The notes below the pieces were generated by a model. It saw only the letters and a list, made by a program, of their open reading frames with translations. It had not been told where the DNA came from and searched no databases. A DNA stretch of 64,000 bases from Schmidtea polychroa (taxonomy: Eukaryota): assembly GCA_044892525.1 (NCBI GenBank), contig CM097885.1, forward strand, positions 208,258,001 through 208,322,000, written 5' to 3'. Below, piece after piece: positions 11,789 to 56,829 of the stretch (position 1 is the first letter of the stretch; the number at the start of each line of letters is the position of its first letter). The translations under genes were made by a program, and so were the position numbers.

Positions 11789-12547
11789 ATGTCCGAACCG
11801 AATCACCCAAAGTCTGGCCCACGGCCATCTTTCTCGTGCGCAGACAAAAATGCGACGATCCGACAATTGAACGATAACATCGGGGTTCTGATGAAGCGAA
11901 TCGACACGTTAAAAGGCACGTGGTTCTCCCCGCCACTCATGAAGGAATCAAATAGAAAAATCTTACGCTTGAATCACTGTAGAGGAAAGTCGGTGTCAGC
12001 GCCTCACTATCAAGGCCCAGTTCGAGGCTCTCCATCGCATTTATTCAGAAGCAGAGCTGAAAAATAAGATTAACGAGTTTCCGATCATCGACAAATCGAA
12101 CGTTTTTCCAATCCATCACCATGCCGATGAAACTAGTGTTCAGACAACGGCGATTTGCCGAAATCATGGCCCTGAAACGTCCCCTTCAATTATACACGAT
12201 GTCATCTTTGTGAGTACCAGCGTGTTATCAACCCAACAGTCTAACGCAATGACATCACCGACAGTCCCAGTGGCTACCACTATCATTCCCATTCAACCAA
12301 CTCCTCTGAAGCGCAAGCGCCTCACCCGTGCCGAGCGCTCAAAGAAACGTCGGGATGAAATCACAGTCATGGAAGCAACGTTATTTGCTGTCCCAGGCCC
12401 AGGGAGAAAAGGATCCATATATCCAACACAGGCCTGGCTAATCTTCCTCAATACCGGGTAGTACCCGTTTCGGAATCTACGTTGTTTCCTGATTCCCAAT
12501 CGGAGATGGATGTCGCTGCACTTCTGAACGAACCTGACGAGTTTTAA
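11789..12547 (+). pseudogene. Family-X ORF (coiled coil / basic / acidic tail), frameshifted copy A
   Basis: RPSFSCADKNATIRQL..IDTLKGTWFSP..MKE; shifted frame RLTIKAQFEALHRIYSEAELK..NVFPIHH; KRKRLTRAER; C-terminus SEMDVAALLNEPDEF*. Aligns by eye along its length with 56080-56829 and 51065-51561. Confidence 0.8.
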
Positions 12548-12856
12548 TGAATAGGCCGCGTTGACCGCCCTCCGGGAAACGTTCATGGCATGATTAACTA
12601 TTCCTCGTATTGTGTGATCTTATTGTTTTCCTATGAACATTCTGTGCACTTGGTTTAATATATGTAATTTCTAAATGTCTTGTCTGAAATGACCCTAAAT
12701 ACAATTCTATATCGTATGTTTTTGTTGCATCGACGGTGTCTAGGAATGATAGAATATTTACGATCTAACAATCGCGCAAAAGAGAAAGAAAGTGGTTAGG
12801 AACACCCTCAGTTGGACCAGAGGAGTGTCGGTAGATCGATATGATTTAATAAGGAA

Positions 12857-12998
12857 GATGTAAGTCCTTCTATCGGCAATCTAGAACCCGAAAGGAGAAT
12901 ACCATGATGAGTATTCTTAACACAGGGGCTCGCCTGCTCATGAATTCCAACCCATGTGTACATTACCAACATGATCGATATCATGGGTGCACATGTGG
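12857..12998 (+). ncRNA. Conserved structured non-coding module, copy A (candidate cis-acting RNA)
   Basis: Core CATGTGTAC-ATTACCAA-CATGAT(CGAT)ATCATG-G-GTGCACATG at 12953-12995; five homologues in the window with compensatory changes. Confidence 0.7.
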
Positions 12999-13129
12999 AA
13001 GTAAAGACAATAATCATAATGGGCGTTTAGGAAGGAGTCCTTCTGAACAGTTATCATTGACCCTAACGACCACCATCACGACACATCCCTAAGCGCCCAA
13101 AAATTTGATTGCAATTAAATAAAATTATT

Positions 13130-13345
13130 CTGTGCTGGGTTTCGATTTATTTGGTTGAATAAGAACACGAGGAGTCAGAGATCCGACTTTAAAATAAAAA
13201 AACCAACAAAACTTTGGTCATTGATTGTTTTGTGTTGAGTGATATTTTGTGATTCAATATACATTGGGTGGTTTGTTGTTTCGTTATTTACAATTAAAGG
13301 GACACGTGGAGTCAGAGAGTACCGAATCAAATTAATAAAAACAAA
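13130..13345 (+). mobile_element. Two successive LTR-like 3' ends
   Basis: GAACACGAGGAGTCAGA..CCGACTTT..AACCAACA (ends 13208), then GGACACGTGGAGTCAGA at ~13300. Confidence 0.65.
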
Positions 13346-14902
13346 CAAATTAACAAAAAATTATTACACAGCATTTTCATTAATGTTTCTTCAAAGTCGC
13401 CTAAAATTGGCATTTTTACCAATTTTATCAGTTGATTTTGGTAGGAGTTGATTACGCTGATAAAAGTGGGTAATGGAATATTGAAAAATTGAAAAAGTCG
13501 ACAAATTATCGAATTAAAATTTGAAAATCGGGTCAGATGCAAATGAGATGATGGGAAAGATCATGGCAAGAACGGACTCATCGGAATATGTTCAGAAAGT
13601 GTCGAAATACAAGAAAACGTTCAAAAAAAGCAAATCGTTAATTAATTAATTAATGAAAACCCGAGTAAGTAAACAGAAAGAAAAGTAAACAAAGTGGGTT
13701 CTGGAAAATTATTATCATGACAACATGAGTAATGGGAAAACGAGGAAAAGGCAAATACTTATTAATGAAAAAATAATAGATATAATCAATATATCGCAAA
13801 CAGACATGGTGGAACCAGATTGGTCCTTACATGTCTAGGGGACAGATTTCAAATGTGCCATTTTAAGGATGCGGGCACAATCATCCGGGTTCCAAATCTT
13901 GTCTTTCATGTGAAAAAACCCCGATGATTCTTGTAGGTTTTCCGCGATCCTTTGATGATTCTTTCGATCATTTTCTTTTATGTATCTATGTACTCTGCGA
14001 ACTTGAATCCCAACTTTCTGAGTATATTGTTGTTATCCTTCATCCAAGTTCCCAGAGAGCAGACAATGAATGTTTTAACAAACTACACATAGAAAAAACA
14101 AATAAGGACTCTATTATAGGAAATATGGACGAATTTGAAGTTCTAACAAAAATCAAGAAACACGTATATCAAAAAATAATCGTTGGATTTAACATCAATG
14201 AAAATTGAAAATATTAGTTTAGATGATGTATTGGGAATAAGAGAAATGGCAAATAATAAAAAGGCCTTTGTGAAAAACGTTTTAGAAGATAAAATAAAAA
14301 TATCAAATTTCGCATTTTAAGTTATAAAATTCAAAAGCAACTTGAAAAGAAACAAGAAACCGATATTCTGCTTTAACCTGAACCATCCGGTGTACAAGAC
14401 ACTTGTATAATAGTCAGTATCTTATGTTAAAAGATGAGCAAGGGTTAAAAATCCTAAAATTGAAGTACTATGTAATTGGATACAAAAAGTACAGTCTGTA
14501 AAGCCAGGATAAATATAAATGTGAAACAATAATACCGAGAAGCTGTGAGCTATCTAAAAATAGATGCGATATTGCATTTAACTTTGAAAATAATATTTGG
14601 TGACATATTATCTTTTAATTTGTCATTTTGTTATTATATTTAATTATTTTTCATATTCATCTTTGGTTTCTTAAATCCTCCCAAAAAATAAAATAAATAA
14701 ATAATTATGATTAATTAATTAAACCCCCTAGGGGCTAAAAATAATATTACACTTTAGGGTTTAATGTAAATATTGTAAATTATAAATTGGTTTCATTTCA
14801 CAGAAGATATTTGCATAAAAATCACTGAGAGACAGTGTCTTTGTGGATAAGTGAGGAAAACACTCGAACTAATCTATCAATAATTAATGTTTTGCCACAT
14901 TA

Positions 14903-14911
14903 AATAATAAC

Positions 14912-14995
<84 letters not shown>

Positions 14996-15011
14996 TGGTA
15001 ATAATAATAAT
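14903..15011. repeat. (AAT)n microsatellite
   Basis: Direct sequence. Confidence 0.98.
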
Positions 15012-15081
15012 AAATCAATTCACCAAATTGTAAGAAATTCATCATATTACAGGGTATTTGATAAATATATATAATCATTCC

Positions 15082-15085
<4 letters not shown>

Positions 15086-24430: not shown

Positions 24431-25446
24431 AATAAAGTATTTTTCTCTATTTTTAATTCAAAATTTATTAACTATTAATTTTAATACAGAAATACTTTAT
24501 TGTAGGTTTTATATGAATAATAGCAGTACAAACTACAAAATTATTTGTTAACTATGTTCTTTGCATAATATTGAACATACCAGCGATCACGGTCAATGAA
24601 AGATCAGGGGCCCAGGAACTCGATTCCCATAAAATGACAAAGAAAAAATTTTGCATAAAAGTGACAATTGTGAGAAAAATGCGTCGGTATATATATCCGA
24701 TTTTGGTGTGCGAGTCTGTGTGCGTGCATTGATGCAGTAAAAAAACATGCACCGTGGCCCAATTCAAAATATATTTTGAACTAAGTGCATGATGTTTATT
24801 TTGTGCACCAAGTGCATTATGGAAAAATTTAATTGTATTTAAAATTTTTATTTCATATATGAAAATATTACCATTCAAATAATTAGGAATATAACGAGAA
24901 ATTCAAAATTAACCTTTCAACTGAACATGAATTAATTGAAAAATAAAATCGAATTAAGTTAATTTTTGTAAAACGCTGAAAATGATTAGATGTTAATAAA
25001 AATGCATTCTATTGAGGAGAGGGCTTCAAAACAAATTTATTTTACAATTTATATTGAAATTCCATGATAAAAGAAAATATATCTAAAATCATAAAGACAT
25101 ACAAAATCAATACAATGAAAATTATTTACTTATAATAATAAAATCAAAATTATTTCTCTGATGGACTATCAAATACAATTAATACTCCATCATGATTTCT
25201 TTGTGTTTTTGAACTGTTCTTACACAGTTTTGAATTGAATGTATTTTAAAATTTATTACTGATATTTTAAAAAATACTTATTGAGAACACTTATAACAGA
25301 CAAAAAAGATGCTGGATAAATGAAAAATTCCAAAAATAGTAACAACTAAAGTCTGCACTTTTAAAACAGAAATTATATTGACTTTAACAGAACAGAGTGT
25401 ATTGACATTCGAAACGGAGTGTCAACAGGGATTTTATATATAAGAG

Positions 25447-26038
25447 ATTTGGGAGAAGAAACCAACACAAAAAACGAACAAGGAGAAACAGCAATGATGT
25501 ACGCAGCAATAACAAATATACACCCGAAAACACTGCATATCAATCGGGTTCAAGACTCGACGAAATATCAAATGAAGGAAACTCCGCCATAGACTGGGCA
25601 ACAATACAACCAAACTTAGAAATGATCCGATTTATTTGTAAAAATGTAACAAGGGTAGAGGTAGAAAACATCTGTAAAAATACATCACAGTTCCAATGGA
25701 ATACGGTACGAAAAAACTTGGAAGCTATGAAACTACTATTAACATGGAGAATACTGCAAAGCAACAAATATGCAATAAACGTAAACGAGTTTTACGAAAA
25801 TGGGGAGAATGCAATGGTTAAAAATACACTAACAAAGGGAGGAACTCCAAAGGTTATATTAATCGTGTTAAACAGAGAAGACCTCAGGTTCACAAAAAAT
25901 GAGAAGGAACAAAAACGAATTGGAAAACATCGTCGCATACAATTGAGAGAACTAGTGAAAGAATGGAATAGAAAAAGACACGCGGCAACTGGGAGAAAGG
26001 AGTTCGAATTTGAAACTAGCAAAACTAGCAAGAAATAG
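25447..26038 (+). pseudogene. Ankyrin-repeat ORF, frameshifted
   Basis: NTKNEQGETAMMYAA (frameshift) GSRLDEISNEGNSAIDWATIQPNLEMIRFI..KNLEAMKLLL..INVNEFYENGENAM match the ankyrin consensus. Intronless. Confidence 0.8.
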
Positions 26039-26300
26039 AGTATTAACGGCATATCGCAGACTATTAAATGATATAAATGTCGAGGACGACATTTTAAACG
26101 ACAGCGGGTGAGACAAATACGATGATAATGACGGAAAGGGTCGAAAGGAAGACAAGGAGAAAAAGACGCCAGAGAATAGTCAAGGGAACAAAGACTCAAA
26201 TACGAGAAGGAAGGAAAATAATCCGGAAAGCAGGACAAAGGAGGAAGAAAGGACAAATAATGGAAAACAGAGGGTATGCCTACTTTTCACCAATAAAGAA

Positions 26301-27296
26301 ATGGAAGCAAATATGATATTAATGATGCTTCTACTAACAATGACGAAAATAATAACAGCCCATGGAGGAATGAGAACGGTAAAAGAGAACAGAGAAACAG
26401 AAAACAACGACAACAAGGAAGAAGAACCAAATCAAGAAAAGAAAGAACAGGTACAAAATCAACAAAGGGATCTAAAGAAAAGGTGTTTGCAAGGAAAATG
26501 CCTATTTAAAGCATATCAGAGGATAATACTGGCCAATGAGGATACAGAACCAATAACAGAAGTAGGAGTACAAGAAGTGTACCAACACAAAAATGGGAGA
26601 AAAATAACAAAAGCTAAGTGGAAGGAAGTATGGTTAGAAAAAGGAGAGGATATACCAATAGCACATCTTCAGCCAAGGAAAGAGCACAAGGTCTGTATCT
26701 CGAGAAAAGAACCAGGAGAAGAATGTCAACAATATGCAACACATCGTCAACCACGCAAGGAGTATACGGTCTGCATCTTGAGAAAAGGACCAGAAAGAGA
26801 ATGCCGACGATACCCCGGGAAAAGAGGGAAGAAAAGAAAAATTAACGACAGAAGAGACGAACAAAAGAAACGCAAGAAAACCAACGAGAAATACCAGGAC
26901 AATTATGTGTCGGAAGAAGAGATGGAAAAAATACAAAAAATGGCAAAAGAGGGAAGCAATGAGAAGATAGCAAGAATACGAGGAATGATAAAAGGAAAAG
27001 TCAAAGAAGAAAATGGGAAAAGCACAAAAGCTATGATTACAACTACAAACGATGAAAAATCAGAAATTATAAGCGTAAACCAAATGATATGGATCAGTGG
27101 AATAATAATAACAGGGGCATTTGTAATTATAACGGGGGGAGCTATTAAAATAATTAAAGATAAACGACATCGTAGAGAATTGGAAATGACCAGAACCAGA
27201 AACTTCAAACATCGAGTAAAAAGACCAAGCAATATATACCAAGAGCAGTGGATGGAGGCCTGGAATGCCCAGCGCCCTCCAAATCCACGTATATAG
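26301..27296 (+). CDS. Intact 331-aa putative membrane protein with 2 x 26-aa Cys-containing repeats
   Basis: Hydrophobic N-terminus MILMMLLLTMTKIITA, repeats HLQPRKEHKVCISRKEPGEECQQYAT / HRQPRKEYTVCILRKGPERECRRYPG, and TM-like IWISGIIITGAFVIITGGAIKII followed by basic residues. No family recognised. Confidence 0.6.
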   Translation: MEANMILMMLLLTMTKIITAHGGMRTVKENRETENNDNKEEEPNQEKKEQVQNQQRDLKKRCLQGKCLFKAYQRIILANEDTEPITEVGVQEVYQHKNGRKITKAKWKEVWLEKGEDIPIAHLQPRKEHKVCISRKEPGEECQQYATHRQPRKEYTVCILRKGPERECRRYPGKRGKKRKINDRRDEQKKRKKTNEKYQDNYVSEEEMEKIQKMAKEGSNEKIARIRGMIKGKVKEENGKSTKAMITTTNDEKSEIISVNQMIWISGIIITGAFVIITGGAIKIIKDKRHRRELEMTRTRNFKHRVKRPSNIYQEQWMEAWNAQRPPNPRI

Positions 27297-27914
27297 AAAG
27301 GGTTATGACTGTATAAAAATTGTAAAAAGTAAGTATATGAAACATATCTATATAACAGTATTACTATATATCTGTATATAAGCGCGGTATCAATATTATA
27401 TAACGATTGGGATAAATAATATAAAAATAAAATCAGACGAAGGTTGAAAAGGTGTATATAAATTAAGAATGGATCAAATAAACAACGAAATAACTCACAA
27501 CACGAAAACCGAAGATATGTGGAAATAGCAATGTGCAATGTTAGCACAAATAATCTCAAATTTGCAAGAACAAGGAATTACAGTACAAAGAAACTTAGTC
27601 GAAAGTTTGAATAAAGGATTCAGTTAGTAAAAATAATTGAAGATTAACGAGTAAAAATAGAACAAATGTATAGAGAAATAGAACGAATAACGCGATACAG
27701 CCGGATGCAGGAAGAGGAGTTAATAAGAATCGCAGATGAAATGGAACGAGAAGTGATGGAAGAGTGGTCGGAATGGTTAACCAGTAGGGAAGAGGGCGGA
27801 CAGGAGGCCGACTCTTCCAGCCAATAAATAAAACCCCAACAAAGTGTAAATAATTGTATATAGAAATACGAGAATTGTACTAGTAAGAAAATACATGTAT
27901 ATATAATTGTAGAA

Positions 27915-29285
27915 ATGGATAAACAACAGAAGGAGGAGATCAAAGGAATCATCGCACAAATCAGAAAGTCAACAACAATCCGAGTACATAAACATGTAAT
28001 GTGCGGAATATGCGAGAAATTATTGAAGGAACCTCATCAGACAAGGTGTGGATGTAGGCTGTGTAAGGAATGTATAGAAGAGATAATAAAGAAGGGACCA
28101 GTATGTAAAGAGGCATTAATATCAAGCCTGAGGGATACCAACGAGGATAAAGCAGCAGTAAATGATATGCTGAACTCTAACCTATGATGTAAAAACACCC
28201 AATGTAATTGGCGGGGGCTAATATGGGAAGTAAAACAACACATAAAGGAATGTACATACAAAATTAGCCAATGCGAACGATGCCAGAAAAGCATCAAGGC
28301 AAACGAGGAAAGGGAACACCAAAACCAATGCGAGGAAAGACTGGAAAAATGCGAATACTGTGGAAAAACAGATGCATGGAAAGAGTTAACGAACAAACAT
28401 TATAACCTACAAGAGGAACAACTGTATGCAGAATTCAGTGGCGAATGTCCAAACGAATGTGGTAAGAAGGGAATGTTAAAGCTAGCACAGCATTTGAAAG
28501 AATGCGAAAAGAAAAGAATAACATGTGTATTGGAAAAATGGGATGCCAGAAACAGCTACACCGAGAAGATTTGCCACAACATTTAGCGGAAAGTATATCT
28601 ACACACGCAGAAATGTGGTCAACTACATTACAAGAGAGCGAGCACCAAACCGAGAAGTTAGAAAAAGAAATAACCTCTTTAAAGGCATTCGTGAAAGAAT
28701 TATTAGAAGACAGAGAAGCATTCGAAGAAGCAAGAACAAGCACCAAAGTACAGACAAATCTGGTCGAGACCACTCATAACATGGTAAAAGAATTATATCT
28801 AAAAATAAACGAACTCAACTTAAACGAAATAATACCAACAGCACCTTACATATGGAAAATAACAGGGGTAAAAGAAAAGATTCGGAGGGCAAAGAATGTA
28901 AAAGATACAACGATGACCAGCCCAGCATTCCATTCATGGAAAAACGGATACAAGATGAAAATGAAAATATATCCTAACGGAGATGGAATCGGATACGGAA
29001 CACATTTTTCGGTATTCTTCCTGTTATGTAAAGGGGAATACGACGAAATAATAGAATGGCCCTTCCAAGCAAAAATTGACATCGTAATGATAAACAATCA
29101 AAGTGTGCACGAACAAAGCTTTAAAACAGCAGGAAATCTCACATATTATCAGAGACCTTTGGAAGAAGGATCGGCATCGGGAGCGCCTAACTTCATCCTA
29201 CAACGAAGTGGAAGATATGGCAAGAAACGATACGATATATATAAAAATGGCAGTAAGAAGGGAAGGGAAGAGTAGAACTGAGTAG
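27915..29285 (+). pseudogene. TRAF: Intronless TRAF-family gene (RING, TRAF zinc fingers, coiled coil, MATH) with 1 stop and 2 frameshifts
   Basis: RING CGICEKLLKEPHQTRCGCRLCKEC; in-frame TGA 28185-28187, then CKNTQCNWRG..CERC..CEYCG..CPNEC. Single-base frameshift in an A-run at ~28535. MATH YIWKI..SPAFHSWKNGYKMKMKIYPNGDGIGYGTHFSVFF..EWPF. Second frameshift at ~29200 restores NDTIYIK, ending at 29285. Confidence 0.95.
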
Positions 29286-30112: not shown

Positions 30113-30160
30113 CGTATACGTGAATTGCGGGACGCAATTTTAACGGGCCCCGGAGTGATT

Positions 30161-41300: not shown

Positions 41301-42229
41301 TTAAAATATTAGATAAAGGAAAAAATAATCAGACAATAATCCTAAATTTAGATATAATATATAAATAAATTATTAATAATATTATTTTGGTTTAGTTTTT
41401 GTTTAGTTATTTGGCAGACTTTTCAAAAATCCTCTAAGATAACTTTTTGATAAATTGTTTTCAATTTCACATTTTCACTTATATTTTGTTTATTCGATAG
41501 TTAATATTCCTTCAATGCGTATATCAGTTTTTATTATTCAACGATGAACGAATTGGATGAACACAATTTTGAAATGATGAAGAAAGTGCAAATAACACAT
41601 CGTGCATAAGCGCAAGATTAAGAAAATGATTTTGAAGAAATGCGTTATATAAGTTAATTGTACAAACATTATCTTTTTGATCTTTTCTTATTATTACTAC
41701 ACAACTGAAAATGTAGACAAACAAAAGTTAAATTTTTTTATTTGTTCGTTAAGATACTTTAATATTTTTTTCGAGTTCCTTTTAATTTATTTGTAATTGG
41801 CTTAAAAGTGAGTACAAGTTATACATGAAAATATTGAAATTATTTAATCTTTGGATTTCAGAAATATCTGAAATTTATTCAAGAAACAAGATGTCATTTT
41901 TTTAATTTAGATCTAGGAAAATGGGTTTATGGCTTGACTATGCAGTTGGACTTCAACCCGGCGCGCACCAGGGATCTCGTGGGCTTGAGCCACCAGGACC
42001 ATAAAAAATTATTAAATTTATTTTGACGTATGCCAAATTTTAATGAGTGAAATTACCTTAATTATTAACTAGAAACGATTAACTACAAAAGGGTTTACTA
42101 AGTCCTCAGCAAAAGATTTGATAAGTGTATTTGACTGTGTAAAATAAGCGGCACCTTTTGCAGTAAATACAAAGGATTTAACTCCCTTCCTGTCCAAAAT
42201 GAATATAAAAATACTGGTAAGTTACAGGT

Positions 42230-42430
42230 AGTCAAACATTTTACCCTTTCGTTCTGTTTCCAGCGTAACTCAGAATACAATGATAATCCTACCAATTGAT
42301 ACCCGATGAGTGATCATCGTTGGTAATGTATCAAGTGGGTGAGTGCTCGCAAAAAGTAAGCGCACTACTTGCGATATAATTGTCGGGCACTCTTTGGGTC
42401 CACGGACAATAGATAGAAGATATACGTCCG
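42230..42430 (-). ncRNA. Conserved structured module, copy E
   Basis: Minus-strand core TTGATAC-ATTACCAA-CGATGA(TCAC)TCATCG-G-GTATCAA (42334->42296); flanks align with 49205-49400. Confidence 0.7.
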
Positions 42431-42561
42431 ATTTGCTCTGATCCCTTGACTATTGTTTTCCCAAGTTTCATAATTCTTCCGCTCAACCTCATCAAACTAA
42501 CATGCATCACACTAGTATGAAGGCACTACAATTTTATTTACAGGCTAAACATATCACTCGT

Positions 42562-42768
42562 TTATTGTTTGTGAAGGGGTTCGTGTTGCGACGATCCAGG
42601 TTGGACCGGGCGCTCTTGGTCAGCTAACTGTAGTCGCTTTAGCCGTTCTCTTCCATCTCGGCCTAGTCTCTTGCGCTTTGGTTTGGCTGGCTTGTTTGCA
42701 TGAACCTCGGCCAGCTCCGCGGCTACAGGTCGAAACGCTGCAGTGACGTGATCATTTGGGTTAGTCAT
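42562..42768 (-). pseudogene. Family-X-related C-terminal fragment
   Basis: RPVAAELAEV..KPKRKRLGRDGRERLKRLQLA..GSSQ aligns with RPLSVELAAI..KPKRKRLGRNIREKLKKARLA..GSSQ of 48533-49003. The coiled-coil part is missing. Confidence 0.7.
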
Positions 42769-43770: not shown

Positions 43771-44491
43771 TGTTGGGCTGATGATCAAAAATAAATAAGA
43801 ATACTCAAATTTATAATTAACAGAAAATAGAGGGAAAAACTGCCTAGAGAAAGAGAACCCAAGAAAATAATAAAAATAATTACCTAACAAAATAGAAAAA
43901 TTAAATAATAAAAAAGATAGCACAGGAAATTAGAATAAAAACATAAAACCTAAAATAACCATAATAATTACGAAAAATCGATAAAAATACGAAAAATTAC
44001 CTAAAAATCGACTAAAGAAAGGAAATTAAGAATAAAAAATAAATTAATAATAAAACCACCGAAAAACATTAAAAAAATATAGATAGAGTAAAAAACAGAA
44101 AAAACCAATAAAATTAAAATATTGCAACCGCGCTGAATTCTGATTGGTCGAAATTTAGTATATAAGAAAAATTAAGCGGTTAGTTTTTAGTTTTTAAATT
44201 TATTCGATAGGATTAGGATCAGCAGCCATACCACTCATTCTAATATCAAGCAAACGAATCAAATAGAATGTAAGGAATTATTTTTAGAATTTGAATGCAC
44301 TATGATGTAAATATTGTTGGGCTGAGTCGAAAACATAATCGCCAAAATGAAGACAGATAGGAGGAGAATAAAATAAAAAATAGGACAACAAATTTTAAAA
44401 TAAACCAATCAAGATATAAAAGAAACAATAAAGTAAGATATAAAGATTAAAACAAAAAATAAAAAATGAGAAAATTAAAATAAGATAATAA
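43771..44491 (+). promoter_or_regulatory. Two stacked, truncated TGTTGGG LTR-like 5' ends (43771, 44315)
   Basis: TGTTGGGCTG starts, A-rich tracts, CTGATTGG at 44140 and TATATAAG at ~44159. Confidence 0.6.
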
Positions 44492-46100
44492 TGTTGGGCT
44501 AGAACTGACTTCTAGACCCAAACTTGAATTGTGACTGAAAGGTGTAGGTACACAACATGCAAAAAAAAAAGTGTAGTTAAATATTAAAATTACATCAAAT
44601 AAACAATATTAATTAAAGGAGAAAACAACAAAAGCATAAACACCGAAATTAAATAAAATCATACCAAAAGCAAGAAGTCATGCAAAATCTAACTCAAAAA
44701 ATGATCAAATAAACATAGAGTTACAAGAAACAAACTCGAATAACTTAAAAGCTGGTAAGAACAGTAAAAAATTCCAGAAAAACCCAGAACATTCCATAAA
44801 AATGGCGATGACCATCATAAAAGCTATCTTAAACAATAAAATTTAGACAAAATCAATAAATTAGTAATAAAAATGAAAATTCGTAAAAAGAAATCCATAA
44901 AACACCAATTAAAATAAAAATTAAATTAAAAGTGAAATAGAATGTTCTGGAACCGTTCCAAATCCATCATGGACGTAAAATTAATGAAAAATAATTAAAG
45001 AATAAAAATATAAAAATAAAAAAAATTATGGCACAAAAATTGCCATTAAAAATATCGAAATTACAAAATAGAAAGTTCTGGAATAAAAAGAATTCGAGTT
45101 TGTTTTAATGCATCAATACATACACGTGTACAAAATAGGTATATATACTGACACGTTTCAGTCACAATCAATCACTATTTTATGCCAATTTTTGCAGAAA
45201 GTATTGCCAACGAAAATAGTAAGAATTGTTGATTTTTTTTTATTGCATTAATGAAGTACTTTTTAAATTAGTTATCATTTTATTTGTTGATTTTTATTAT
45301 ATTAATGAATTATTTTTTTTAATTTATGATTATTTTATGTGTTGATTACATTAATGAATTACCTTTTCAATTTATGAGTATCTTATTTGTTGAGTTTATT
45401 ACATTGGTGAATCACTTTTCAATTTATTATCAATTATGTAGGGGAATCGAAGTAATTGCATTTTTTGATGTCTCTTGCTTTAGATTTTCTCCAGTGATGT
45501 ACGAAGGTTCGACGGCGTACTGGTATTCCTGCGTCGTCGTTCGGTCCTGCATCTAATTTTTATAGCACATGCATTATCAATATTATAGCAATCTAATATT
45601 ATATCATCCTTTTTTGTTCGGGTCTTTCGGGGGTCGAACTACTTCATGGTCCTGCCATGGAGTTAGGTTGAGGAAACCCTCCGTCTGACTCTTTGTATTT
45701 ATGTAAGGTCGACCGTAAATGGTTGACTCAACACACAACACTAAGGTTTGTGGAAGTGGTCACAGTGGGGCCATGGAAGCAATATTCTTCCCGACTTTCA
45801 GTTAATACACATGTAAAATCCACATTCAAAATCACGAACAAAAACTCTACATTAAGGTTCTAAATTGAGTAGAACTCGTACCTAAAATGACACAATCCTG
45901 CACTCACACTCATGTAGCTGGTTGACCCTTAATAGTAATTGTAAGTATACTTAGACAGATGCCGAACTAGAATTTGAAATAAGAATTTACAGTAAAGTAA
46001 TAAAATGAGAAGGATCGTCGGCATGTGTATAAGTATAGTTTAATTTAGATAGGCTAATTAAAGTAAATGTAGATATCATAAATGTAATTCTCCAGAAACA
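44492..46100 (+). repeat. Long LTR-like repeat, inverted copy of 1-2232; 5' part also matches 61673-62401, 62782-63513 and 24670-24750
   Basis: Shared TGTTGGG(C/T)TAGAACTGA.TTCTAGACCC start and GGTATATATAC box; see the 1-2232 feature. Confidence 0.8.
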
Positions 46101-46320
46101 AATTACAAATTGATCAGGAATCCTACTCTAATACATTTGGGTAAATGATAAATGAACAACACGGATAAATCTTAACTATAAAAATAGACCATAAGCAAGT
46201 GTATATAGATCAGAAAATATAAATCTAGTTATGTATGTATATGTTAACTCTAAATAGGTAACCTAGTAAGGATAATAGATAGATTTTTAACCACAAAGAT
46301 ATAAATGTTACATATAATTT

Positions 46321-46710
46321 ATAATTATAAATCCCAAATGGTTATGGGAAAATTTTGTTTTATAATAATGAAGGGGAATCTCTTTAATAATCCCTTTAAT
46401 CTTAGAAATATAAATGATAAAAATGTTATATATAAATTATAATTAGAAATTCCCAAGGGTTATGGTTAACTTTTACCTTATAAGAATGGAAGAATCTCTT
46501 TAATAATCGCTTCAGTATTAGAAACATAGATGATAAAATGTTATATATGAGTTATAATTATAAATTCCCAATAGTTATGGTTAAATTTTACTCTATGAAA
46601 ATGAAAGAATCGCTTTAATAATCTCTTCAACCTTAAAAGCACAAATGATAAAATTATAAATGTTATCTATAAATTATAATTACAAATCCCCAATGGTTAT
46701 GGTTAAAAGT
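46321..46710. repeat. Degenerate minisatellite, ~3.3 x ~118 bp
   Basis: ATAATTA(T/G/C)AAAT(T)CCCAA..GTTATGG recurs at ~46321, 46438, 46554 and 46676. Confidence 0.85.
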
Positions 46711-47960
46711 TATTTGATATAAATTATAAATATAATCTATAAATAGGTATAAATACGAATTATAGATAGTTATATTTAATACTTGGCTATAAATATACAA
46801 AGTACAAATAGCGATAATAACCTGCAACGAAGCATACGACGTTAGAATTAGGGCTATAAAAATCTTGCTAGAGTCATGAATTACAAATTGAAATAATTAT
46901 ATTCATTATTATAACCATCATCATTAGTGTTATTATTACCATTATTATTATTTGTTATTATTATTACTATTATTACTACTATTGTTATCATGGTATTATT
47001 ATTATTATTATTATTGTTACAATTATTATTGTTATCTCTATCAGCAATTATTGCTCACCAAAATCAATATTCCAATCGAAATATCGATTTAAGATTTGCC
47101 CCAAGACAAATTTAGTATCAACCCTTTAGATCCAATAAGAAGGAGCGAAATCCTTAAAAGTTATTTTTAGTAACCCCCCTCTAGAAAATGTTAACACTAT
47201 CTAAGTAAATTGGAGATAGGGGCGGAAGTATATTATCAAAACCTATGAGATACCTATCAAAATCATTAATGAATCGTAATCATATCATTTGTTTACTAGA
47301 GAATCAAACCACTATTACTAAAATACCAAAGATTTCTTTATTATGAATAATAAATTATAAATACAAAACTACTACGAATTCCAAGAGAATTCCTAACGAG
47401 GAGTCGTACGACGATCTCCCAAAGCTAAACTCGTCTATCTCCAGTCAAGAAAAATCATCACCCAGCATTCCTAGAAATGAAAATTTGCGGTAAATAAACA
47501 AATTACCCGAGCTGCTTAAAAGTCGATTGTACCACTCATGACGAGCACGATCAAGGAGAGGTAAGTAAACGAGAACTAAGCTCGCCACTAATACCTATCA
47601 CCCGATGTGCCCGAATTCAGTAGTAATTTACTAATTCCCGGGAATTCGACAAAATTTAACATAAAGATTTTTAAATTACCATCTCGTGGTAAATAAATGA
47701 TAAATAGTGAAATAGTAAGTTTAAACAAATATGACAGTGAGGGAATTTTTTGTTTGTCGAGGTATTCAACATTAATGCTTAATCTAGATAAATGTTTTTT
47801 TTTTATTTTTAATTGATTAAGAATTTTATCGATAAATTAAGTAAAAAATTTCATGTTAAAAGTAGTTACATTACTTATAGTAACTTTGGTAGTTAAAGTA
47901 TTATTTATTTTGGGTATATTTTCCACATTGGTTATGATCGTTAATATTTGTACTACAGAT

Positions 47961-48326
47961 ATGTCCCAATCAGATGAGTTCAGCGATGAAGAAAACCACC
48001 GACAGACGATCACCCGCCTCCGGACCCGTTACATCTGGCACCATATACATCGGTGGGGTCAGGGAAGGGACCTAGATTGTACGGAACGAGTAATCCGGAC
48101 AGGCCCCGAAGTAGATGCCCCGGCATGGGTGAAGGTGGAACCGGAGAATAACCGGCTGCAGGAGGCCCGAGACCAAGCGGCCTGGGAGGTGGAAGCCGCT
48201 CAGATGCGACTCAGGAAGATCGAGTTACAAATCCGGGCGAAAAGAGAAGGAGTGCCCGTGGAGGAGCTAGAGGAGGCCATAGTATTCCCACGAAAGAGAG
48301 GGAGGCCCCGCAAATGCCGAGGGTGA
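47961..48326 (+). CDS. 121-aa protein with coiled coil and C-terminal AT-hook
   Basis: ATG directly after an acceptor-like TACTACAG; GC-rich island; ends PRKRGRPRKCRG (AT-hook core RGRP). Confidence 0.6.
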   Translation: MSQSDEFSDEENHRQTITRLRTRYIWHHIHRWGQGRDLDCTERVIRTGPEVDAPAWVKVEPENNRLQEARDQAAWEVEAAQMRLRKIELQIRAKREGVPVEELEEAIVFPRKRGRPRKCRG

Positions 48327-48532
48327 TCAAGGACCAACTATTGACTTACTATAATTGTGTGTATTGTGACAAATAATCAAAATTGGTTGAGGATCATGTG
48401 TTACTCTTTTTAACAAAATATCTTTTGAATAAATTTCTTATTTAATAGCTCAAGTATCGTGATGCATGATATTGACCTTATTATATTGAACAAGGGGAAT
48501 GCTGCAAGCCAGTAATCGTTGTAATTTATCTA

Positions 48533-49003
48533 GTGATCAAACTATGCGAAAATCTACGAAAGGACAGAGAAGAAGCCCAAAAACAGGCCGAGGAGCTCCG
48601 TATACGAGTGGACAAACTCAAGGGACGGTGCCGTGAACTAGAAAGCACCTGGTTTAGTCCTCAAGATATGAGGAAGAAGTTGACACCGGTCCTCCAATTG
48701 CAGACTCAAAACGCGCAGGATCAGATGGAGATCCGGGCCTTGAAACTCCAACTCCGCGCGTTGGAAACCGAACGCAATGAACAAGCGGTTCACGGAGCCA
48801 CCATAAGTCAAATCCGGCCGTTGTCCGTGGAGTTGGCAGCCATTTACCCTCCGGCCGCGAAAGATAAGCCCAAGAGGAAGCGGCTGGGGAGAAACATTCG
48901 TGAGAAATTAAAGAAGGCCAGACTGGCCGAATACGAAAAGCAAGTGGGCTCCTCGCAAATATCTACGACGGGACTAATCGGCCCCACCAACCGGCCAAGT
49001 TGA
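48533..49003 (+). CDS. Family-X divergent member (start codon uncertain, GTG)
   Basis: Coiled coil RIRVDKLKGRCRELESTWFSPQDMRKKL (compare IDELEGTLFSPAQMKE) and basic KPKRKRLGR; 156 codons open. Confidence 0.65.
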   Translation: MIKLCENLRKDREEAQKQAEELRIRVDKLKGRCRELESTWFSPQDMRKKLTPVLQLQTQNAQDQMEIRALKLQLRALETERNEQAVHGATISQIRPLSVELAAIYPPAAKDKPKRKRLGRNIREKLKKARLAEYEKQVGSSQISTTGLIGPTNRPS

Positions 49004-49204
49004 ACTTCCATTCCTTGATGTGTACTTCTGTAGTGTGTTTATATATCTAGTAGTATTAAAATGATATTTCCTTTGCTTGTTGTTAAAATAATACATGTTC
49101 GGTAGCGTTAAAAATGTCTGATATATTTTATGATTGTGTGAAAAGTGAGAGTTCGCACGTAAGGTTGGGAAAACAATTTTGATAAGGGACCTAAGGAAAT
49201 CGGA

Positions 49205-49340
49205 CACAAACCTTCTAACGGTAGTCCGTGAACCCATGGAGTGCTCGACGATTATAGTGCCTCGAGGCGCTCACTTTTCGCGAGCACTCAACCCTTGGTA
49301 CAGGACCAACGTTGATTACTCAACGGGTACCAAGCGGAAA
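49205..49340 (+). ncRNA. Conserved structured module, copy D
   Basis: Perfect core CTTGGTAC-AGGACCAA-CGTTGA(TTAC)TCAACG-G-GTACCAAG at 49294-49334. Confidence 0.72.
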
Positions 49341-49961
49341 CACTAACGTTGTATTTTGGGTTACGCTGGCAACAGCACTAAAGAACAAAATATTTGATCA
49401 TCAGTAACCCACCAATAAGATAATGAATAAAATGACGAAAAACGCAACAAATAACGAGGAATTTAAGAAACAAATAAAAAATATAAAAAAAATAAAGGAA
49501 AATAAGGAAAACAACCAAAGAAATAAGAAAAACAAATTAATTTAAAAATTAAAGCGGTACTCGATTTTGATTGGTCCGCATAAACGAAAAATGCATATAT
49601 AAGTAAACAGTAAACTCATTATAGTTACTGTTAAACCAAACCATTTACAGGTAAGAAATAATGACAAATAGTTACTGTTAAACCAAACCATTTACAGGTA
49701 CTCGACTATCCAGACAATCACCGGACATTCAGAAAACAGACGACTACTAGGAACAACTATAACTTCGATCTAACACTATAACCGATTTAATTAGCTTTTC
49801 GGCTCAGCCTTTTTGAATCACCGATTTACGAACGATAAGTAAGAATGTGTTTTTATTGTGAAATTGCGTAAATGTTTTTCGAAGTTAAAAATATTTTTAG
49901 TATATCAATTTAACAGATTTTAATAAACCTTCTTCATTCGATCTCACTTTTTAATAATAAT

Positions 49962-51017
49962 TGTTGGGTTTTGGATTATTTCAAGTCGGTTCTCTCTGAC
50001 TCCTGTGTCCTTTAAATCAAAACAATGAACGACCCAACGTATATTGAAACAACAGGTTCACAATTTATTATCACGCTACAATTACCAATCAAAGTTTTAT
50101 ACGATTCTCTGCTCGGCGTTAATGTTTTGCATACAAATAATATTCACCTTTTTGTCCTTTCGATTCTCTTGACTCTCGTTTTCCTCGGTTTCTGTTTGGT
50201 TTGATTCCTTTTCACCTTTTCGTATTCTTAATTCTATTTCTTCTCCCTACTTCCCTAAATTCGTTTTTACCTCTCGACTATTCTCGATTCTTCTTACCCT
50301 ACCTGAGGCAAAATGCCGATTTTCTCTGATTTTCCCTTTGCTTATATACTCCTCGAAATCCGGATGACAAATGGTTATTGCCGAGCCAATCTTTCGTTTG
50401 ACATTTTCTCCTACGTGTTTGCTTCGGCTGTCACCCATAATGGTCCAACGAATCCAGATAATTAATGGCCCTACCAGTCTTCCTACGCGCGCTATCTTCT
50501 CCTTACTCTTTTCCCATTAATCTTTGTGTCAAGCTAATGGGCCCAAATCTTCCTTTTGTTTGCCTTTCTTCTTGTTTACCCAGCTCGGGTTTCCTTTATC
50601 TCTCGGGTTCTCCATTGGCTCGAGTTTCCCATTAGCTCGGGTTTTCCATTAGCCAATTAATTAATTAATTAACGTTTTCTGTTTCCATACGTTTGAATGT
50701 TTTTCGACTCTTCCTAACCCTTTTCTGATAAATCCCTAACCATCATCTTGTTGACCATTAGCTAATCTATACCTGTCCCGTTTTTCCCATTCGATTTCGA
50801 TGATTTTTCCCTTTATTGATTTTTCTCGGATTTCCGGATTCTCGCCTTTCGTAATTGCTTTTGGCATTTTCTAATACTGTTTCCATCACACTTTCCTTTA
50901 CTATTGATTCTGTGCACGATCCCGCTTTTATTTGCCTTTTTTCCTCGCTTACTTTCCATTTGAATTATTATTCTAAATTTTATTTAAATTTTCAATTTTA
51001 ATTTACGGACCTCAACA
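49962..51017 (-). mobile_element. Complete solo LTR-like insertion (1056 bp) with 4-bp TSD TAAT
   Basis: Plus-strand TGTTGGG at 49962 and CCTCAACA ending 51017; TAAT at 49958-49961 and 51018-51021. Carries the family GAGTCAGA 3' motif and AATGGGAAACCCGAGC-type repeats. Confidence 0.8.
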
Positions 51018-51064: not shown

Positions 51065-51561
51065 ATGATATGTCTTTATATTCACTCCGCCGAATATATA
51101 GGGTCGTTTAAACGAAAAATTGATACGCTGGAGGGAACATGGTTTACTCCTGCCAGTATGAAGGAGGCTCGCATGAAAATTCTCCGTCTTGAAAATTGCC
51201 GCGACAGCTTGTTGCAAGAGAATCTGAGCCAGAGATTCACCATCAAGGCACAATCGGCTGCCCTTCATCGCATATACTCAGACGCTGAACTAAAAGCGAG
51301 AGTAGCAGAATACCCAATAACGGACAAGGGAAATCTTTTCCCACTCATCATGATTTAACTCTCCTAAGGCCCGATCCATCTCTTTGTTGCAGTGCACACG
51401 GCCCAACTCCGGCATCTCCAATTCTCACCGACATCGTTAAGGCCTCTACGTCAACAACTGTACCGCCAGTCACTACTTCATCAAATCCGTCAACGTCGCA
51501 GCCAGTCGTTTTGCCTGGAAAACAGAAGAGGAAGAAACGGCTAACACGGGCCGAGAAAATC
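51065..51561 (+). pseudogene. Family-X copy, frameshifted (~51340) and 3'-truncated
   Basis: KRKIDTLEGTWFTPASMKEARMKILRLENCRD..RFTIKAQSAALHRIY..NLFP (frameshift) HHD..KRKKRLTRAEK, then replaced by AT-rich DNA. Confidence 0.8.
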
Positions 51562-52086
51562 ATAAAAGTTAAAATTTATAAAATTATATTCCGATATGAG
51601 GATAGAAATAGTATATATTAATATAATTGTTATTGCATAAGTAATTTGGGGAATCAACAGAAATGTTTCGAGTTATCCTTTTAATTATAAGATGGTGGAA
51701 AGACATCAATTATCATTATAAATTATATACAAATAATCGTCAAAAGTATGATATATGATTAGATAATCGTAAAATTAATCCAGTAGGTGGGAAAATTTGA
51801 GTTTGGTATATGGTTGGCAACTTTTAAAGTTAGGGTTTATAATTTAGATAAAACATAGAATTATAACTCGCTTTTGAATGTATGGGTGGAAAAGGGTTTA
51901 CTATATAAAATTTTAAATAATAAGTTTTATTAATTATGTAAATGAAGAAATTAAATTTCATTGACATTAGATGAATGAATTTGGATAAGATGTAGATTAT
52001 AGATCCTGAGTTGCGTATATGCATTTCGAAATTTTTGCCGAAAATTATTAACATGATTGTCCTTCTAGTTCGTGAATTTTTCATTT

Positions 52087-52900
52087 TGTTGGGTTATTGA
52101 GTTGGTGATAAATTTAAATGTTACTCTGACTCCAAGCGTGTCTTTATACGATTCACAAATAACACTTGACAACAGAAATCTTTATTGATAATCACAAATA
52201 CACTTTCTCTTTACACTGACAATAAATTCAACACTCTGCTTGGTGACTATACAATTCTTATTACAACACTCGGTGAGGAATAGCACTTGTGTATAACACC
52301 GGATTAAAAGATCAAAAATTACTGATTGGTTTCTAAACTGGGATTTTGAGCTGGTTGTTTTCTTTGACTTTCTTCCAAATTTTATTCAAATAATCAAATA
52401 ACTTCTTTTCGTTTTATTATTCAACTAATTCTTTTCTTCAACTCTTCTCCAATAATTATTTTCCACAATTATTTCCTTTACTGATTGGATAATTTCCCTC
52501 TGAATTCCCAGTTTGTTTATCCTTCCAAATTGCCGCGCTCGGGTTCGCCATTGTCTCGGACTTCCCATATGCACGGGTTTCTCATTAGCCAATTAATTAA
52601 TTAATTAATATTTTGTGTTTTTTCATATTTGCCTATTTACGACCCTTTCTAAACATTTTCTAACAATTTCTTGCTCACTGTCTTCTTCACCCTCTCCTAA
52701 TTTACCCCTCTTCCGTTTTCCAGCTTCAATTTCGATAACATTTCACTTTATTCCACTTCCTCAGGTTTGCGCATTTTTTCATTTCGTGTTTGACTGCACC
52801 CTTTTATAGTTCTGTTTTTATCATATCTTTCTTTGCCATTACTTCTCTGCTTGACGGCCATTCAATTTCGGTTTTCCTTTTATTTATTTTTAAAACTTAA
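52087..52900 (-). mobile_element. LTR-like unit, 5' end not found
   Basis: Reverse complement ends ..GAGTCAGAGT..ATAACCCAACA; 52500-52610 matches 5160-5300. Confidence 0.7.
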
Positions 52901-53030: not shown

Positions 53031-53700
53031 TGTTGGGCTGAGTCGAAGACTTAATTGTTAAAAAATAGGGAAATAAGAAAGCAGGACGTTAAAGGAAAAT
53101 AAAAATAAAATAAACGAAATTAAGAATAAAATAGAATAAGATATAAGAAGATAATAATTAGGATATAAAAATTAAAACAAAAAATTAAAATAAGAAAAAA
53201 TTAAAATAGAACAATAAATTGACAAATAGATGATGTAAAGTTTAATAAATAATAAGGAAATTAAGGAAATAAATAGAAAATATATTAAAAATAAAGAAAA
53301 TAAGGAAAAATAACCTAAAAACAGAAAAAAATATATTAAATTGAAAAAATAAGCGGTACTCAACTCTGATTGGCCGCACAAATAAGAATTTGCTATATAT
53401 ACAGCCACCAAAATCATTAAATTTACTGTTAACCCCAAGCATTTTATAGGTAAGAGAGAATGTCTAAATTAGACTGTTAACCCCAAGCATTTTATAGAGA
53501 CAACTACAACTTACAGAGTCTTACTCAAGGATCAGGACTACTAGTAGAGCAACAATTAATTCGGAAACTTCACAGCAACTCGAAATCAGTTCAAAGTTAG
53601 ATACCATCTGCCACAGCGATCGACATTCAAAGAACCATCATCAGACCAATTTAGAACGACTAACATTAATTTTTCGATTCAGCCTTATTCGATAGTAAGG
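53031..53700 (+). promoter_or_regulatory. TGTTGGG-initiated promoter-like unit with 5' exon and donors
   Basis: CTGATTGG 53366, TATATAT 53394, GTAAG donors at ~53450 and ~53695; homologous to 49410-49840. Confidence 0.6.
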
Positions 53701-54079
53701 AAATTTTATTTACGTTATTTATTTTAAAGGTTAACAGTAGTTATGAATATTTGAATGAATAATTATAAGATTTAATTTAAAACACTCTCTCTTTTCATTT
53801 GATCCCTATTAATGTTTTTGATTTAGTAAATGATTGAATTATTTAAAAGTATTTACTCGTAATAAATGATTTATTGATGAATTTCGTTATGATTAGTATT
53901 ATGAGTTATTATTTCATTGTGGTTAACTTAATGAGTAACGTGGAGTTGAGAGACTCCGGATCATGGTGTGAGGTGCCTTCGGGAGCTCAGCCGGTGGATC
54001 TGAAGTTTTTCAATCACGCAGCTAGATTGGGCCGAAATGTGAAGGCTTCTTCACGGGTCCAATCGCTGAAGGTGACTTA

Positions 54080-54900
54080 AAATGAATATAGGAAAGTAGA
54101 AACGAAGGGGTGTAGTGGCATCTGATTTATTGGAATAGTAGTAGTGGTTCACAGTGACTGAGCGAGTCTAAATTCTTCACATCTACAACAGCTCTGTAGT
54201 TCTCGTATTTGCGAGATTCATTATCACCATCAACCATAGGTTCCAGGCGGTTTAATTTCTTTAGCAGGACAAGCATCATCTATCAACCAATTATTTTCGT
54301 CTTTTCGAAATAGTCACTCGCACTCGATTTTAACAACGAATCCAGTTTTACAGCACTTCCTCTGACAGTAGGATAAGCATATAGTAGAACATAATACTAT
54401 CGAAAATTGTAATTGAAGAATAAGCCGATACATGTAAAAGATTTTTATTCAAGTACAAAAGGAAAACTATTTTTGAAATACCTGTATATGAGCCAATGCA
54501 TGAAAAATTTAAATTATTTAACTTCCAGAAATAGTCGCCATCAACGAATTGAGATAGGTAGAGACATCCAGAATAGTTGAAATAAACTTCCACGAAGCGA
54601 TATATCCAACAATAGTGATGAGCGAGAATTGATGCTTAGATTTTTCATGTTAGAGAGGACCAGCATAGTGTAATCTAGCATCAGCAAAACAAATCCAGAA
54701 TGCTAATCGGGTTAAAATGTAGTAGAGCAACTATACTCACACACGCGTAAACACATGTAGTACGAGTTCAGTAGCAGATCCATCTGGGATACTCATCGGC
54801 GATAACACAACGATTTTTCTACTCAATCATGTGGGAATTTTCCATGTGACACACTCATTAGGTTATTTCCATGATTTGACTCAGCAGTAGGTAAATTCGC
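54080..54900 (-). pseudogene. Degenerate tandem MATH-like ORF (tentative)
   Basis: CVTWKIP..KIVVLSP..LVLHVF, then DGDYFWKLNNLNF..KIVFLLYLNKNLLHVSAY resemble two MATH starts; several stops. Confidence 0.35.
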
Positions 54901-56079
54901 ATTAAGCAATTAGCATGAGAAGTTCCACCCAGTGTGTAACATCTAGTCTCAGCCTATAGATAAGAATCATCAGCCAGAGAGAAATTTACACTGGTTACTG
55001 ATAACCGATAGCGTGCGGTTGTATATTTTAATTCCAAATTTTGGGAACTTTTAAATTTAATACGTATGAATGATGATTAATTAAATTTAATTAACCAGCG
55101 GAATCTGCCAAACCTACATATTAAATAATTTTCTTTTGTAAAGTAGTCCTTTATTTTTGTTAGAGTTCTTGAATGCGATTTAACAATTTTCAAGGAAAGT
55201 TTAATTATTAATAATTTCACATAAATATAGAGCTTCCATTTTCTAACAATAATGCATTACCTTCATTAGGCAAAGTTATATTGTCGGTTGATTTTTGTAA
55301 GTAATTAATCCAAACGGACTAAAGATCGATCATATGTGGGGGGGGGGGGGGAGATATGAAAATTTTCATGTAGGCACCCGTAATGCTGATTTTGTCATCT
55401 GCCATAACGATAGAAATTTTTACATTCGTGAGTTAATAGCGGATAAGTGTAGTGAAATGGCAGCTGACCTGAGACTGCTACTCCCAAGCTGTGTTTTTCT
55501 GTCATATCGCTGAGATAGAGATTGGCTCATACTATCATGAAAATCAACTAGACCGATGTGTTGAGGTACAGAATTCACAAAGTTCATTCATCAAAAAATC
55601 ACCAACTAATTATCTTGAATACTTAGAATAATTTTAAATTTAGATTTTACAATTAACTCCAGTAATTTCGTTCAGTAAACGTAATAGATAATTATTCAAT
55701 TTTTCATTATGTCATGACAAGTAATACAACGACATTCTTATTAAAGAGTATTTTCACATTTTTGTTTTACTATTGTTTTAAATATTATAAATCTTACAAC
55801 CAGACCGTATAGAAACTTACAGGGAGAAGGGTTAAAGTTAGTAAAGGTATCCCATGGAGAGTTTTCAGTTAAATCAAATTGCATTCGCCAAGTCCATATT
55901 ATTTGCCGAATTAACTAGTATTTGTCAAGTTAGCATTATTTAGCTAAATAAGTCTTCTGTAAATGATCATAACTAGGTTGTAAAGGGAGTTCTTTCTGTT
56001 TGACAGTCGAGTATCCACGAGGGGTCAGTTAATCGTGTTCAATGTATTTTCAAATCTTGCATGTACCTTTATAGCGATC

Positions 56080-56829
56080 ATGATACCAACTGCCAAGCCC
56101 GCGTTACGTCCGTGCTTCTCCTGCTCGGATAAGAATGCGATTATAAAGGATCTGCAGGCCCAGATCGGGCGATACAAAAAGAAGATAGATGAGTTGGAGG
56201 GCACCTTGTTCAGCCCCGCTCAGATGAAGGAGACCCAGAAAAAGCTGTATCGCAGCGAACACTGTCGTGACGCTCTCATCTCGGAGAGTCGTTCACAAAG
56301 GAGCTTGATAAAGGAGCAGTCCGAAGCACTGCAAAAGGTTTATTTACAGGCAGCGACCACCAGAAAGATTGTGAACATTCCCATTCGCGAAGCCGATGAG
56401 CTCTTTCCGGCGCACCATGATACTTCTGCCGAATTGCCGTCTTCTTCCAAGAAATCTTGCCGACAGTGTGTAGAAACGGAACTCTCACCAAAAGACCCAG
56501 ATCTCATCATCACGGGAACGAGCAGAGTACAAAGTGAAAACGCACCTACTGATACTGTGCCACAGAGAAATCAATCAACGTCGAAACCAAAGCGTAAGCA
56601 GTTATCGCGGGCAGAGCGTAAGAGACGACAGCGCGAACGAGCGAACATCCAGCAAAACACCACCGTGATGGAACCCCCAACTCCCCGAAACGTCAACCCC
56701 GCAGTGATAGATCTAACCACCGGAATCCCAGCACGGATTATCTCGGCTGCTGGCGTAGTATGGGAGGAAAATGACTCCGAATTTTTCGACATCGACGAAT
56801 TATTACGGGATACCGAGTGGGAAAAGTGA
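56080..56829 (+). CDS. Family-X intact member, 249 aa, unknown function
   Basis: Uninterrupted GC-rich ORF in AT-rich surroundings. RPCFSCSDKNA, coiled coil, LEGTLFSP..MKE, LFPAHH, KPKRKQLSRAERKRR, acidic tail FFDIDELLRDTEWEK. Two close and two distant paralogues in the window. Confidence 0.8.
   Translation: MIPTAKPALRPCFSCSDKNAIIKDLQAQIGRYKKKIDELEGTLFSPAQMKETQKKLYRSEHCRDALISESRSQRSLIKEQSEALQKVYLQAATTRKIVNIPIREADELFPAHHDTSAELPSSSKKSCRQCVETELSPKDPDLIITGTSRVQSENAPTDTVPQRNQSTSKPKRKQLSRAERKRRQRERANIQQNTTVMEPPTPRNVNPAVIDLTTGIPARIISAAGVVWEENDSEFFDIDELLRDTEWEK

Follow-up and report, generated by a model that had tools for sequence, protein, structure and literature searches.

A conserved protein gene within the long terminal repeats of Burro-type giant Gypsy retrotransposons in Schmidtea polychroa

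We analyzed a 64,000-nucleotide stretch of the Schmidtea polychroa genome (assembly GCA_044892525.1, contig CM097885.1, positions 208,258,001 to 208,322,000 of the forward strand), hereafter the window, whose first letter is position 1. Five stretches of open reading frame (ORF) in the window encode related proteins, and each of them almost certainly lies inside a long terminal repeat (LTR) of a giant Gypsy retrotransposon of the Burro/GYPSM1 type. The ORF is a real protein gene kept under purifying selection, and it probably encodes a nuclear regulator of the element itself.

Gene copies in the repeats of a giant Gypsy element

An earlier note, made from the sequence alone, had described the five stretches as copies of an unrecognised ORF family coupled to a structured RNA module. 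All five carry the motifs given there and are true homologues of one mobile family, with some copy limits corrected. The copy at 56080..56829 (forward strand) is intact, as proposed, and is the only ATG-to-stop gene among the five. It encodes 249 amino acids (aa), with a CFSC motif, two long predicted helices separated by a W/L-F-S-P kink (this copy reads LFSP, and 24 of the 25 aligned sequences read WF[ST]P), a disordered linker, a basic helix and an acidic-aromatic tail. The stretch at 11789-12547 stands as a homologue but not as an intact reading frame: it is frameshifted, its first ATG frame spans 92 aa, and it belongs to the 3′ part of an old LTR (11789..13099, forward strand) that retains a splice acceptor and the module (12846-13099). 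Homology was likewise upheld for 51065-51561 but its start was not, because the similarity begins near 51098, so that the ATG at 51065 does not mark where the family begins; this fragment of a third sub-family (51098..51570, forward strand) is truncated at both ends and frameshifted, with no module remaining. The copy at 48533..49003 (forward strand) is an open frame of 156 codons that begins at AG|TG, without an ATG at the homologous start, and has a predicted coil, a WFSP kink, a second predicted coil and a basic helix, without an acidic tail. Finally, 42562-42768 (reverse strand) is a C-terminal fragment, homologous from about residue 5, in the 3′ end of a diverged LTR (42215..42756, reverse strand) that also holds the module (42215-42439).

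These copies fall into two clades, one with the 56.1-, 51.1- and 11.8-kb copies and the other, which we call Burro1-type, with the 48.5- and 42.6-kb copies; the label was assigned by size, polyprotein length, domain order and youth, not by identity to the deposited Burro1-4 references. The clades are joined by a profile-profile match over 35 columns around the WF[ST]P motif (probability 94%, E 1e-7) and share one predicted layout of long helix, kink at the motif, long helix, linker and basic helix. The acidic tail, which the earlier note had taken as a feature of the family, is present in the 56-kb sub-family, weaker in the 51-kb sub-family and absent from the 48.5/42.6-kb clade.

The intact gene occupies a 4.3-kb solo LTR (53031..57350, forward strand; TGTTGGG...CCCAGCA) flanked by the 4-bp target duplication GTAC, and the same LTR type bounds 29-kb elements elsewhere. 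The 48.5-kb copy lies in a 4.9-kb solo LTR of the Burro1-type clade (44492..49414, forward strand; target duplication ATAA) inserted in another LTR of the family. These are the two complete solo LTRs of the window, which also contains several fragments; its ORF copies all reside in solo or broken LTRs. Across the genome, the LTRs measure 3.6-5.3 kb, have TGT..CA ends and 4-bp target duplications, and derive from parent env-bearing Gypsy elements of 29-34 kb. In the 56-kb clade, the flanks of 21 long loci define a unit of 3.6-4.3 kb that begins TGTTGGG and ends CCCAGCA or CCCAACA. Where both ends of a locus could be seen, an exact 4-bp duplication was present in 10 of 13 cases in this clade and in 9 of 12 in a second set, and four of the six loci lacking it are LTRs still attached to internal sequence.

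Paired repeats connect these units to their parent elements. LTR pairs that are 98.3, 99.7 and 99.98% identical enclose elements of 29.1, 29.3 and 34.2 kb. Five same-strand pairs examined in the 56-kb clade comprise two complete elements (29.1 and 29.3 kb), one rearranged element and two segmental duplications, and all three pairs examined in the 48.5-kb clade are LTR-bounded, one of them being the 34.2-kb element, whose LTRs are the 99.98% identical pair and which contains a frame of 4,791 codons; these eight paired regions include five LTR-bounded elements. For the 48.5-kb protein, 87 of 150 matches are paired with another one 24-34 kb away on the same strand, and no match is so paired on the opposite strand. 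A non-autonomous DNA transposon had been considered as the identity of the 4-kb unit and was ruled out by the paired LTRs.

Between the repeats, we found genes for a RING protein, a Gag with CCHC knuckles, a SUMO-like domain, a viral fusion glycoprotein, protease, reverse transcriptase (RT), RNase H and integrase (PR-RT-RH-IN), ankyrin, TRAF/MATH and BIR-RING proteins. The PR-RT-RH-IN order of pol is that of Ty3/Gypsy elements, the direct terminal repeats with TG...CA ends around gag-pol are those of LTR retrotransposons, and the RTs of elements from the two clades are 91-99% identical. An 18-nt primer-binding site, complementary to the 3′ end of the genomic tRNA-Pro(TGG), lies 7-8 nt past the 5′ LTR. 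No polypurine tract was found before the 3′ LTR at three junctions, where all three elements have a conserved mixed, hairpin-like sequence. The planarian Burro/GYPSM1 elements (PMC6431247) share the size of 29-34 kb, the long LTRs, the Gag with CCHC knuckles, the SUMO-like domain, the fusion glycoprotein between Gag and protease, PR-RT-RH-IN, ankyrin, MATH/TRAF and BIR-RING. The length of about 30 kb, the env-like fusion protein in frame between gag and pol, and the MATH, ankyrin, BIR and SUMO-like domains place the elements in that group. Burro ORF1 has 4,873 aa (PMC6431247), next to the 4,791-codon frame noted above, and the BCL2-like and dUTPase-like parts of Burro were not detected by Pfam in elements of this genome.

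Other remnants of the same family populate the window. An internal fragment at 25443-30169, 75% identical to the post-integrase region, carries TRAF zinc fingers and MATH. LTR 5′ fragments occur at 384-2233 (reverse strand), 44310-44491 together with 49415-49700, and 61673-63539, with LTRs nested in each other, and a perfect 1.1-kb tandem duplication spans 61293-63513. A different dispersed repeat, which combines a GACACG(A/T)GGAGTCAGA core with an (AATT)n tract, adjoins these LTRs at 4528-4731, 13159-13654, 49950-50915, 52130-52850 and 57495-57554. Genes for tRNA-Pro(TGG) form a long 475-bp tandem array at C1:130.90-130.95 Mb, and their pattern matches 2,161 times genome-wide.

Selection and sequence features of the LTR gene

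Genome-wide searches with the proteins returned thousands of candidates: 5,946 first-look candidates for the 56-kb protein in the 781-Mb genome, with 150 scored matches 68-100% identical, and 5,496 for the 48.5-kb protein, two counts that overlap and are not copy numbers. Intact frames were present at 22 of 30, 24 of 46 and 10 of 25 loci in three sub-families and at none of 25 in the 11.8-kb sub-family, so the analysis of selection covers the former three. The ratio of nonsynonymous to synonymous substitution rates (dN/dS) among copies, a check that the earlier note had proposed, is well below 1 (0.09-0.29), indicating purifying selection. Pairwise estimates, for which synonymous sites are near saturation, were 0.089 (58 of 171 pairs usable, 19 sequences), 0.12 (68 of 105) and 0.16 (41 of 45), and codon models gave omega values of 0.14, 0.19-0.20 and 0.28-0.29; for the gene at 56080..56829, dN/dS is 0.09-0.14. 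Constraint is strongest on the coil, the basic helix and the tail, and weakest on the linker; in the tail of the 56-kb sub-family, the nonsynonymous proportion (pN) is 0.10-0.13 against a synonymous proportion (pS) of 0.60-0.83.

The family is unrecognised, as first described: sequence and fold searches gave no Gag, transposase, host or viral match, and nothing at E ≤ 0.001. No homologues were found in Pfam, in protein sets of 5.8 billion and 1.84 billion sequences, among PDB sequences, or among viral and PDB folds, one of the empty searches covering proteins of 136-436 aa only. An atlas search yielded sub-threshold leads only, among which the Deltavirus antigen was rejected as a relative (atlas score 0.77, under the noise level).

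Of the parts of the protein, just the coil and the basic helix persist across all clades, and the basic helix mixes lysine and arginine (4-7 R, 3-7 K). All 18 sequences of the 56-kb sub-family have an acidic, aromatic tail, and their last 25 residues hold 8-10 aspartates or glutamates and 7-8 large hydrophobics. A scan of the C-terminal 50 residues for the classical leucine-rich export-signal pattern, with non-classical signals outside its scope, matched 2 of 18 sequences of this sub-family, and the pattern is not conserved.

The Burro1-type solo LTR carries a second gene, of 121 aa (47961..48326, forward strand), with its own acceptor before the ATG, an omega of 0.25 and a C-terminal RKRGRPRK that we take to be AT-hook-like; no counterpart was found in two 29-kb elements.

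Predicted transcript signals and structured RNAs

The solo LTR at 53031..57350 contains, on the forward strand, the signals expected of a small spliced gene. A reverse CCAAT box (TGATTGG) and a TATA box (53367..53400), conserved in the LTR alignment, form a predicted promoter, which is followed by a predicted 25-nt first exon, a GTAAG donor (53450) and a micro-intron (53425..53497 in all) that ends in an exact 25-nt copy of that exon. A polypyrimidine tract and AG acceptor (56060..56074) stand just before the ATG, and a predicted poly(A) signal (56941..56946) reads AATACA in the window copy and AATAAA in most relatives at the aligned place. A YAG acceptor lies 2-10 nt 5′ of the ATG in 30 of 30 copies, though the upstream intron does not align, and AATAAA occurs 90-160 nt past the stop codon in 23 of 30.

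In the Burro1-type solo LTR, the corresponding signals (45139..45223, forward strand) are a TATA box, a predicted first exon with A (45218) as its last nucleotide and a GTAAG donor. The region from TATA to donor is matched in 12 of 14 loci of this clade with the 5′ end in view, an A precedes the GT in 12 of 12, and the homologous frame begins AG|TG in all 22 of the close loci and in 11 of the 24 distant ones; all these splice-site counts come from related loci and are not independent. Given an A before the donor and AG|TG at the frame start, splicing would build the ATG (A|TG) in this clade. On the strength of these conserved motifs, the LTR gene is likely expressed from its own spliced LTR messenger RNA (mRNA).

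The repeated first exon recurs beyond the window: in 16 of 22 LTR starts it is repeated exactly (at least 18 nt) at the 3′ end of the micro-intron, and the repeat sequence differs between lineages. Such a pattern would be expected if spliced RNA served to rewrite the sequence at every strand transfer, and the strong-stop DNA would then measure about 3.9 kb. One element carries the repeat in only one of its two LTRs.

The RNA module forms the terminal 220-280 nt of the LTR, beside the tRNA-Pro primer site. In the 56-kb copy it comprises the last 275 nt (57075..57350, forward strand), a predicted U5 region that the primer site follows in full elements, and in the Burro1-type LTR it occupies the predicted U5 at 49191..49414 (forward strand; z -5.2). 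The stems are alike in all module copies of the window. Single sequences fold weakly for three of the five copies (z -0.6 to -1.6), so that the structural support for the module rests on covariation: two-sided changes affect 12 of 61 pairs across 16 copies, a level reached by one of 500 shuffles, and slid controls gave 0-4. The proposal of a structured RNA downstream of the ORF is thereby borne out. An Rfam search gave no match, and a ribozyme or retrozyme reading was dropped.

The coupling of ORF and module also holds. The module starts 123-300 nt past the stop in four copies, the truncated 51.1-kb copy being without one, and genome-wide it lies 3′ of the ORF on the same strand at 29 of 30, 28 of 30, 21 of 25 and 25 of 25 loci in four sub-families (103 of 110), as opposed to 0, 0, 0 and 1 loci with the module upstream. 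Because both are fixed parts of the LTR, however, shared membership alone explains the association. The idea that the protein binds its own 3′ hairpin is not supported, since the conserved AATAAA precedes the module, which is therefore predicted to lie outside the ORF mRNA; its place between the poly(A) signal and the primer site makes it best read as a U5 leader structure of the full-length RNA, where it would serve priming and packaging and where binding by the protein is possible. Two further LTR 3′ ends in the window carry the module without a recognised ORF upstream (33155-33295, forward strand, and 36121-36372, reverse strand), the latter followed by a degenerate primer-binding site.

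A second structured RNA, a twin hairpin within the predicted long intron (53939..54068, forward strand; z -5.45), is a candidate Rev-type response element. Two-sided changes occur in 11 of its 49 pairs, with 0 of 500 shuffles as high, and it is present in 14 of 20 long loci; in the other six, the LTR 5′ part is out of view. As judged from sequence, it is likely a better candidate for a Rev-type target than the 3′ module. No blastn match to the hairpin was obtained in 21 of 21 Burro1-type loci, and hairpins of the Burro1-type intron showed two-sided changes in 0 of 26 pairs (nine close sequences, poorly aligned).

A putative regulator and its retroviral analogies

We favor a reading in which the ORF is a selected accessory gene of the LTR, likely with a spliced transcript, whose product is likely a nuclear trans-activator of its own element, and we give this reading as a whole a probability of about 0.5. 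A short first exon past the TATA box would be joined to the ORF exon and the RNA would end after AATAAA, all inside the LTR, so that an expression cassette would be complete in each intact solo LTR. The long helices would oligomerise, the basic helix would mediate import into the nucleus and binding to nucleic acids, and the acidic-aromatic tail would recruit the transcription machinery; in the tail-less Burro1-type clade, the second LTR protein with its AT-hook-like motif would share the task. A nuclear self-regulator of some kind is probable, whereas transcriptional activation specifically falls somewhat short of even odds.

Several points weigh against this reading. The loci used to estimate selection are the top protein-search matches with intact frames only, which biases dN downward, and many are close relatives. 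Splicing and expression are deduced from conserved motifs. The viral and PDB fold searches retrieved generic helices only and no known DNA-binding fold. The youngest and most amplified clade, the Burro1-type, lacks the acidic tail, which therefore cannot be the universal function. The features common to all clades, coil and basic helix, would fit a Rev-like protein equally well.

A Rev-like switch of export or splicing follows close behind the favored transactivator, and is somewhat unlikely. The protein would oligomerise, bind structured RNA through its basic helix, probably at the twin hairpin, and let unspliced full-length RNA leave the nucleus. Coil and basic helix, the sole parts present in every clade, recall Rev-like proteins as described in PMC5568270; the element must retain the predicted 2.6-kb LTR intron in its genomic RNA; and the intronic hairpin covaries and is widespread among the long loci. 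The near-absence of the classical export signal from the tails of the 56-kb sub-family and the free exchange of lysine and arginine in the basic helix speak against such a switch, as does the Burro1-type clade, where the hairpin found no match and the poorly aligned hairpins of the intron showed no two-sided changes. Rev, Rex, Rec and Rem (PMC5568270) share with the LTR gene a small protein from spliced RNA, long helices and a basic helix, all predicted here, and a structured RNA nearby; in contrast, no sequence or fold similarity to them was found, the export-signal pattern is not conserved, and the host element is a Gypsy retrotransposon with the gene wholly within the LTR.

Considerably less likely is a host-directed accessory protein, similar to Nef or Sag in position, that would target silencing in the host, apoptosis or ubiquitin pathways rather than the nucleic acid of the element, as is thought for other Burro accessory genes. 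Retroviruses do have host-directed genes that overlap the LTR, and the same elements bear BIR-RING and TRAF genes. Between two elements, the LTR gene also diverges much faster than Pol (pN 0.078 versus 0.004 for RT), but pS is raised as well (0.71 versus 0.28), which assigns the fast change to the LTR, and no host domain was recognised. Synonymous divergence of the LTR and its gene is about 2.5 times that of RT between these elements, which suggests exchange of LTRs or quicker LTR turnover. An independent small element whose protein binds a hairpin in its own 3′ untranslated region, which the tight linkage and the real covariation of the module might recommend, is very improbable, as the unit is the LTR of a larger element, AATAAA precedes the module and the module abuts the primer-binding site.

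A retroviral-style regulator offers the best analogy for the family. Foamy virus Tas, HTLV Tax, HIV Tat and Nef, and MMTV Sag are retroviral transactivators or products of LTR-overlapping genes. The LTR gene resembles them as an accessory gene at or in the terminal repeat with a basic region and an acidic tail resembling an activation domain; it differs in that no homology was detected and in that the complete cassette is present in both LTRs and persists in solo LTRs. On a bolder and more tentative account, a Gypsy element would have independently evolved the regulatory circuit of a complex retrovirus wholly within its LTR, the spliced regulator, its start codon built by splicing in one clade, acting on the structured RNA or promoter DNA of its own LTR and thousands of solo LTRs supplying it in trans, as genes in their own right, throughout the planarian genome.

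The element family is already known, and the LTR-borne spliced gene is apparently new within the literature covered. The text on Burro (PMC6431247, section 7) names no LTR gene, LTR splicing or structured U5, and a literature search found no paper describing an LTR-encoded ORF in a retrotransposon or in Burro; Grohme 2018, Lee 2026, figures and supplements were outside its scope and may show the ORF. Burro elements are abundant and expressed in planarians (PMC8532177), and one is reported second-hand, in PMC13465017, to support stem cells and regeneration. A conserved LTR gene means that solo LTRs, usually regarded as promoter remnants, could still make protein. If its product is indeed of the Tas/Tat or Rev type, the system would be a rare regulatory circuit of this kind outside retroviruses, and a single exon junction would provide a direct handle on RNA control in a 30-kb, multiply spliced element.

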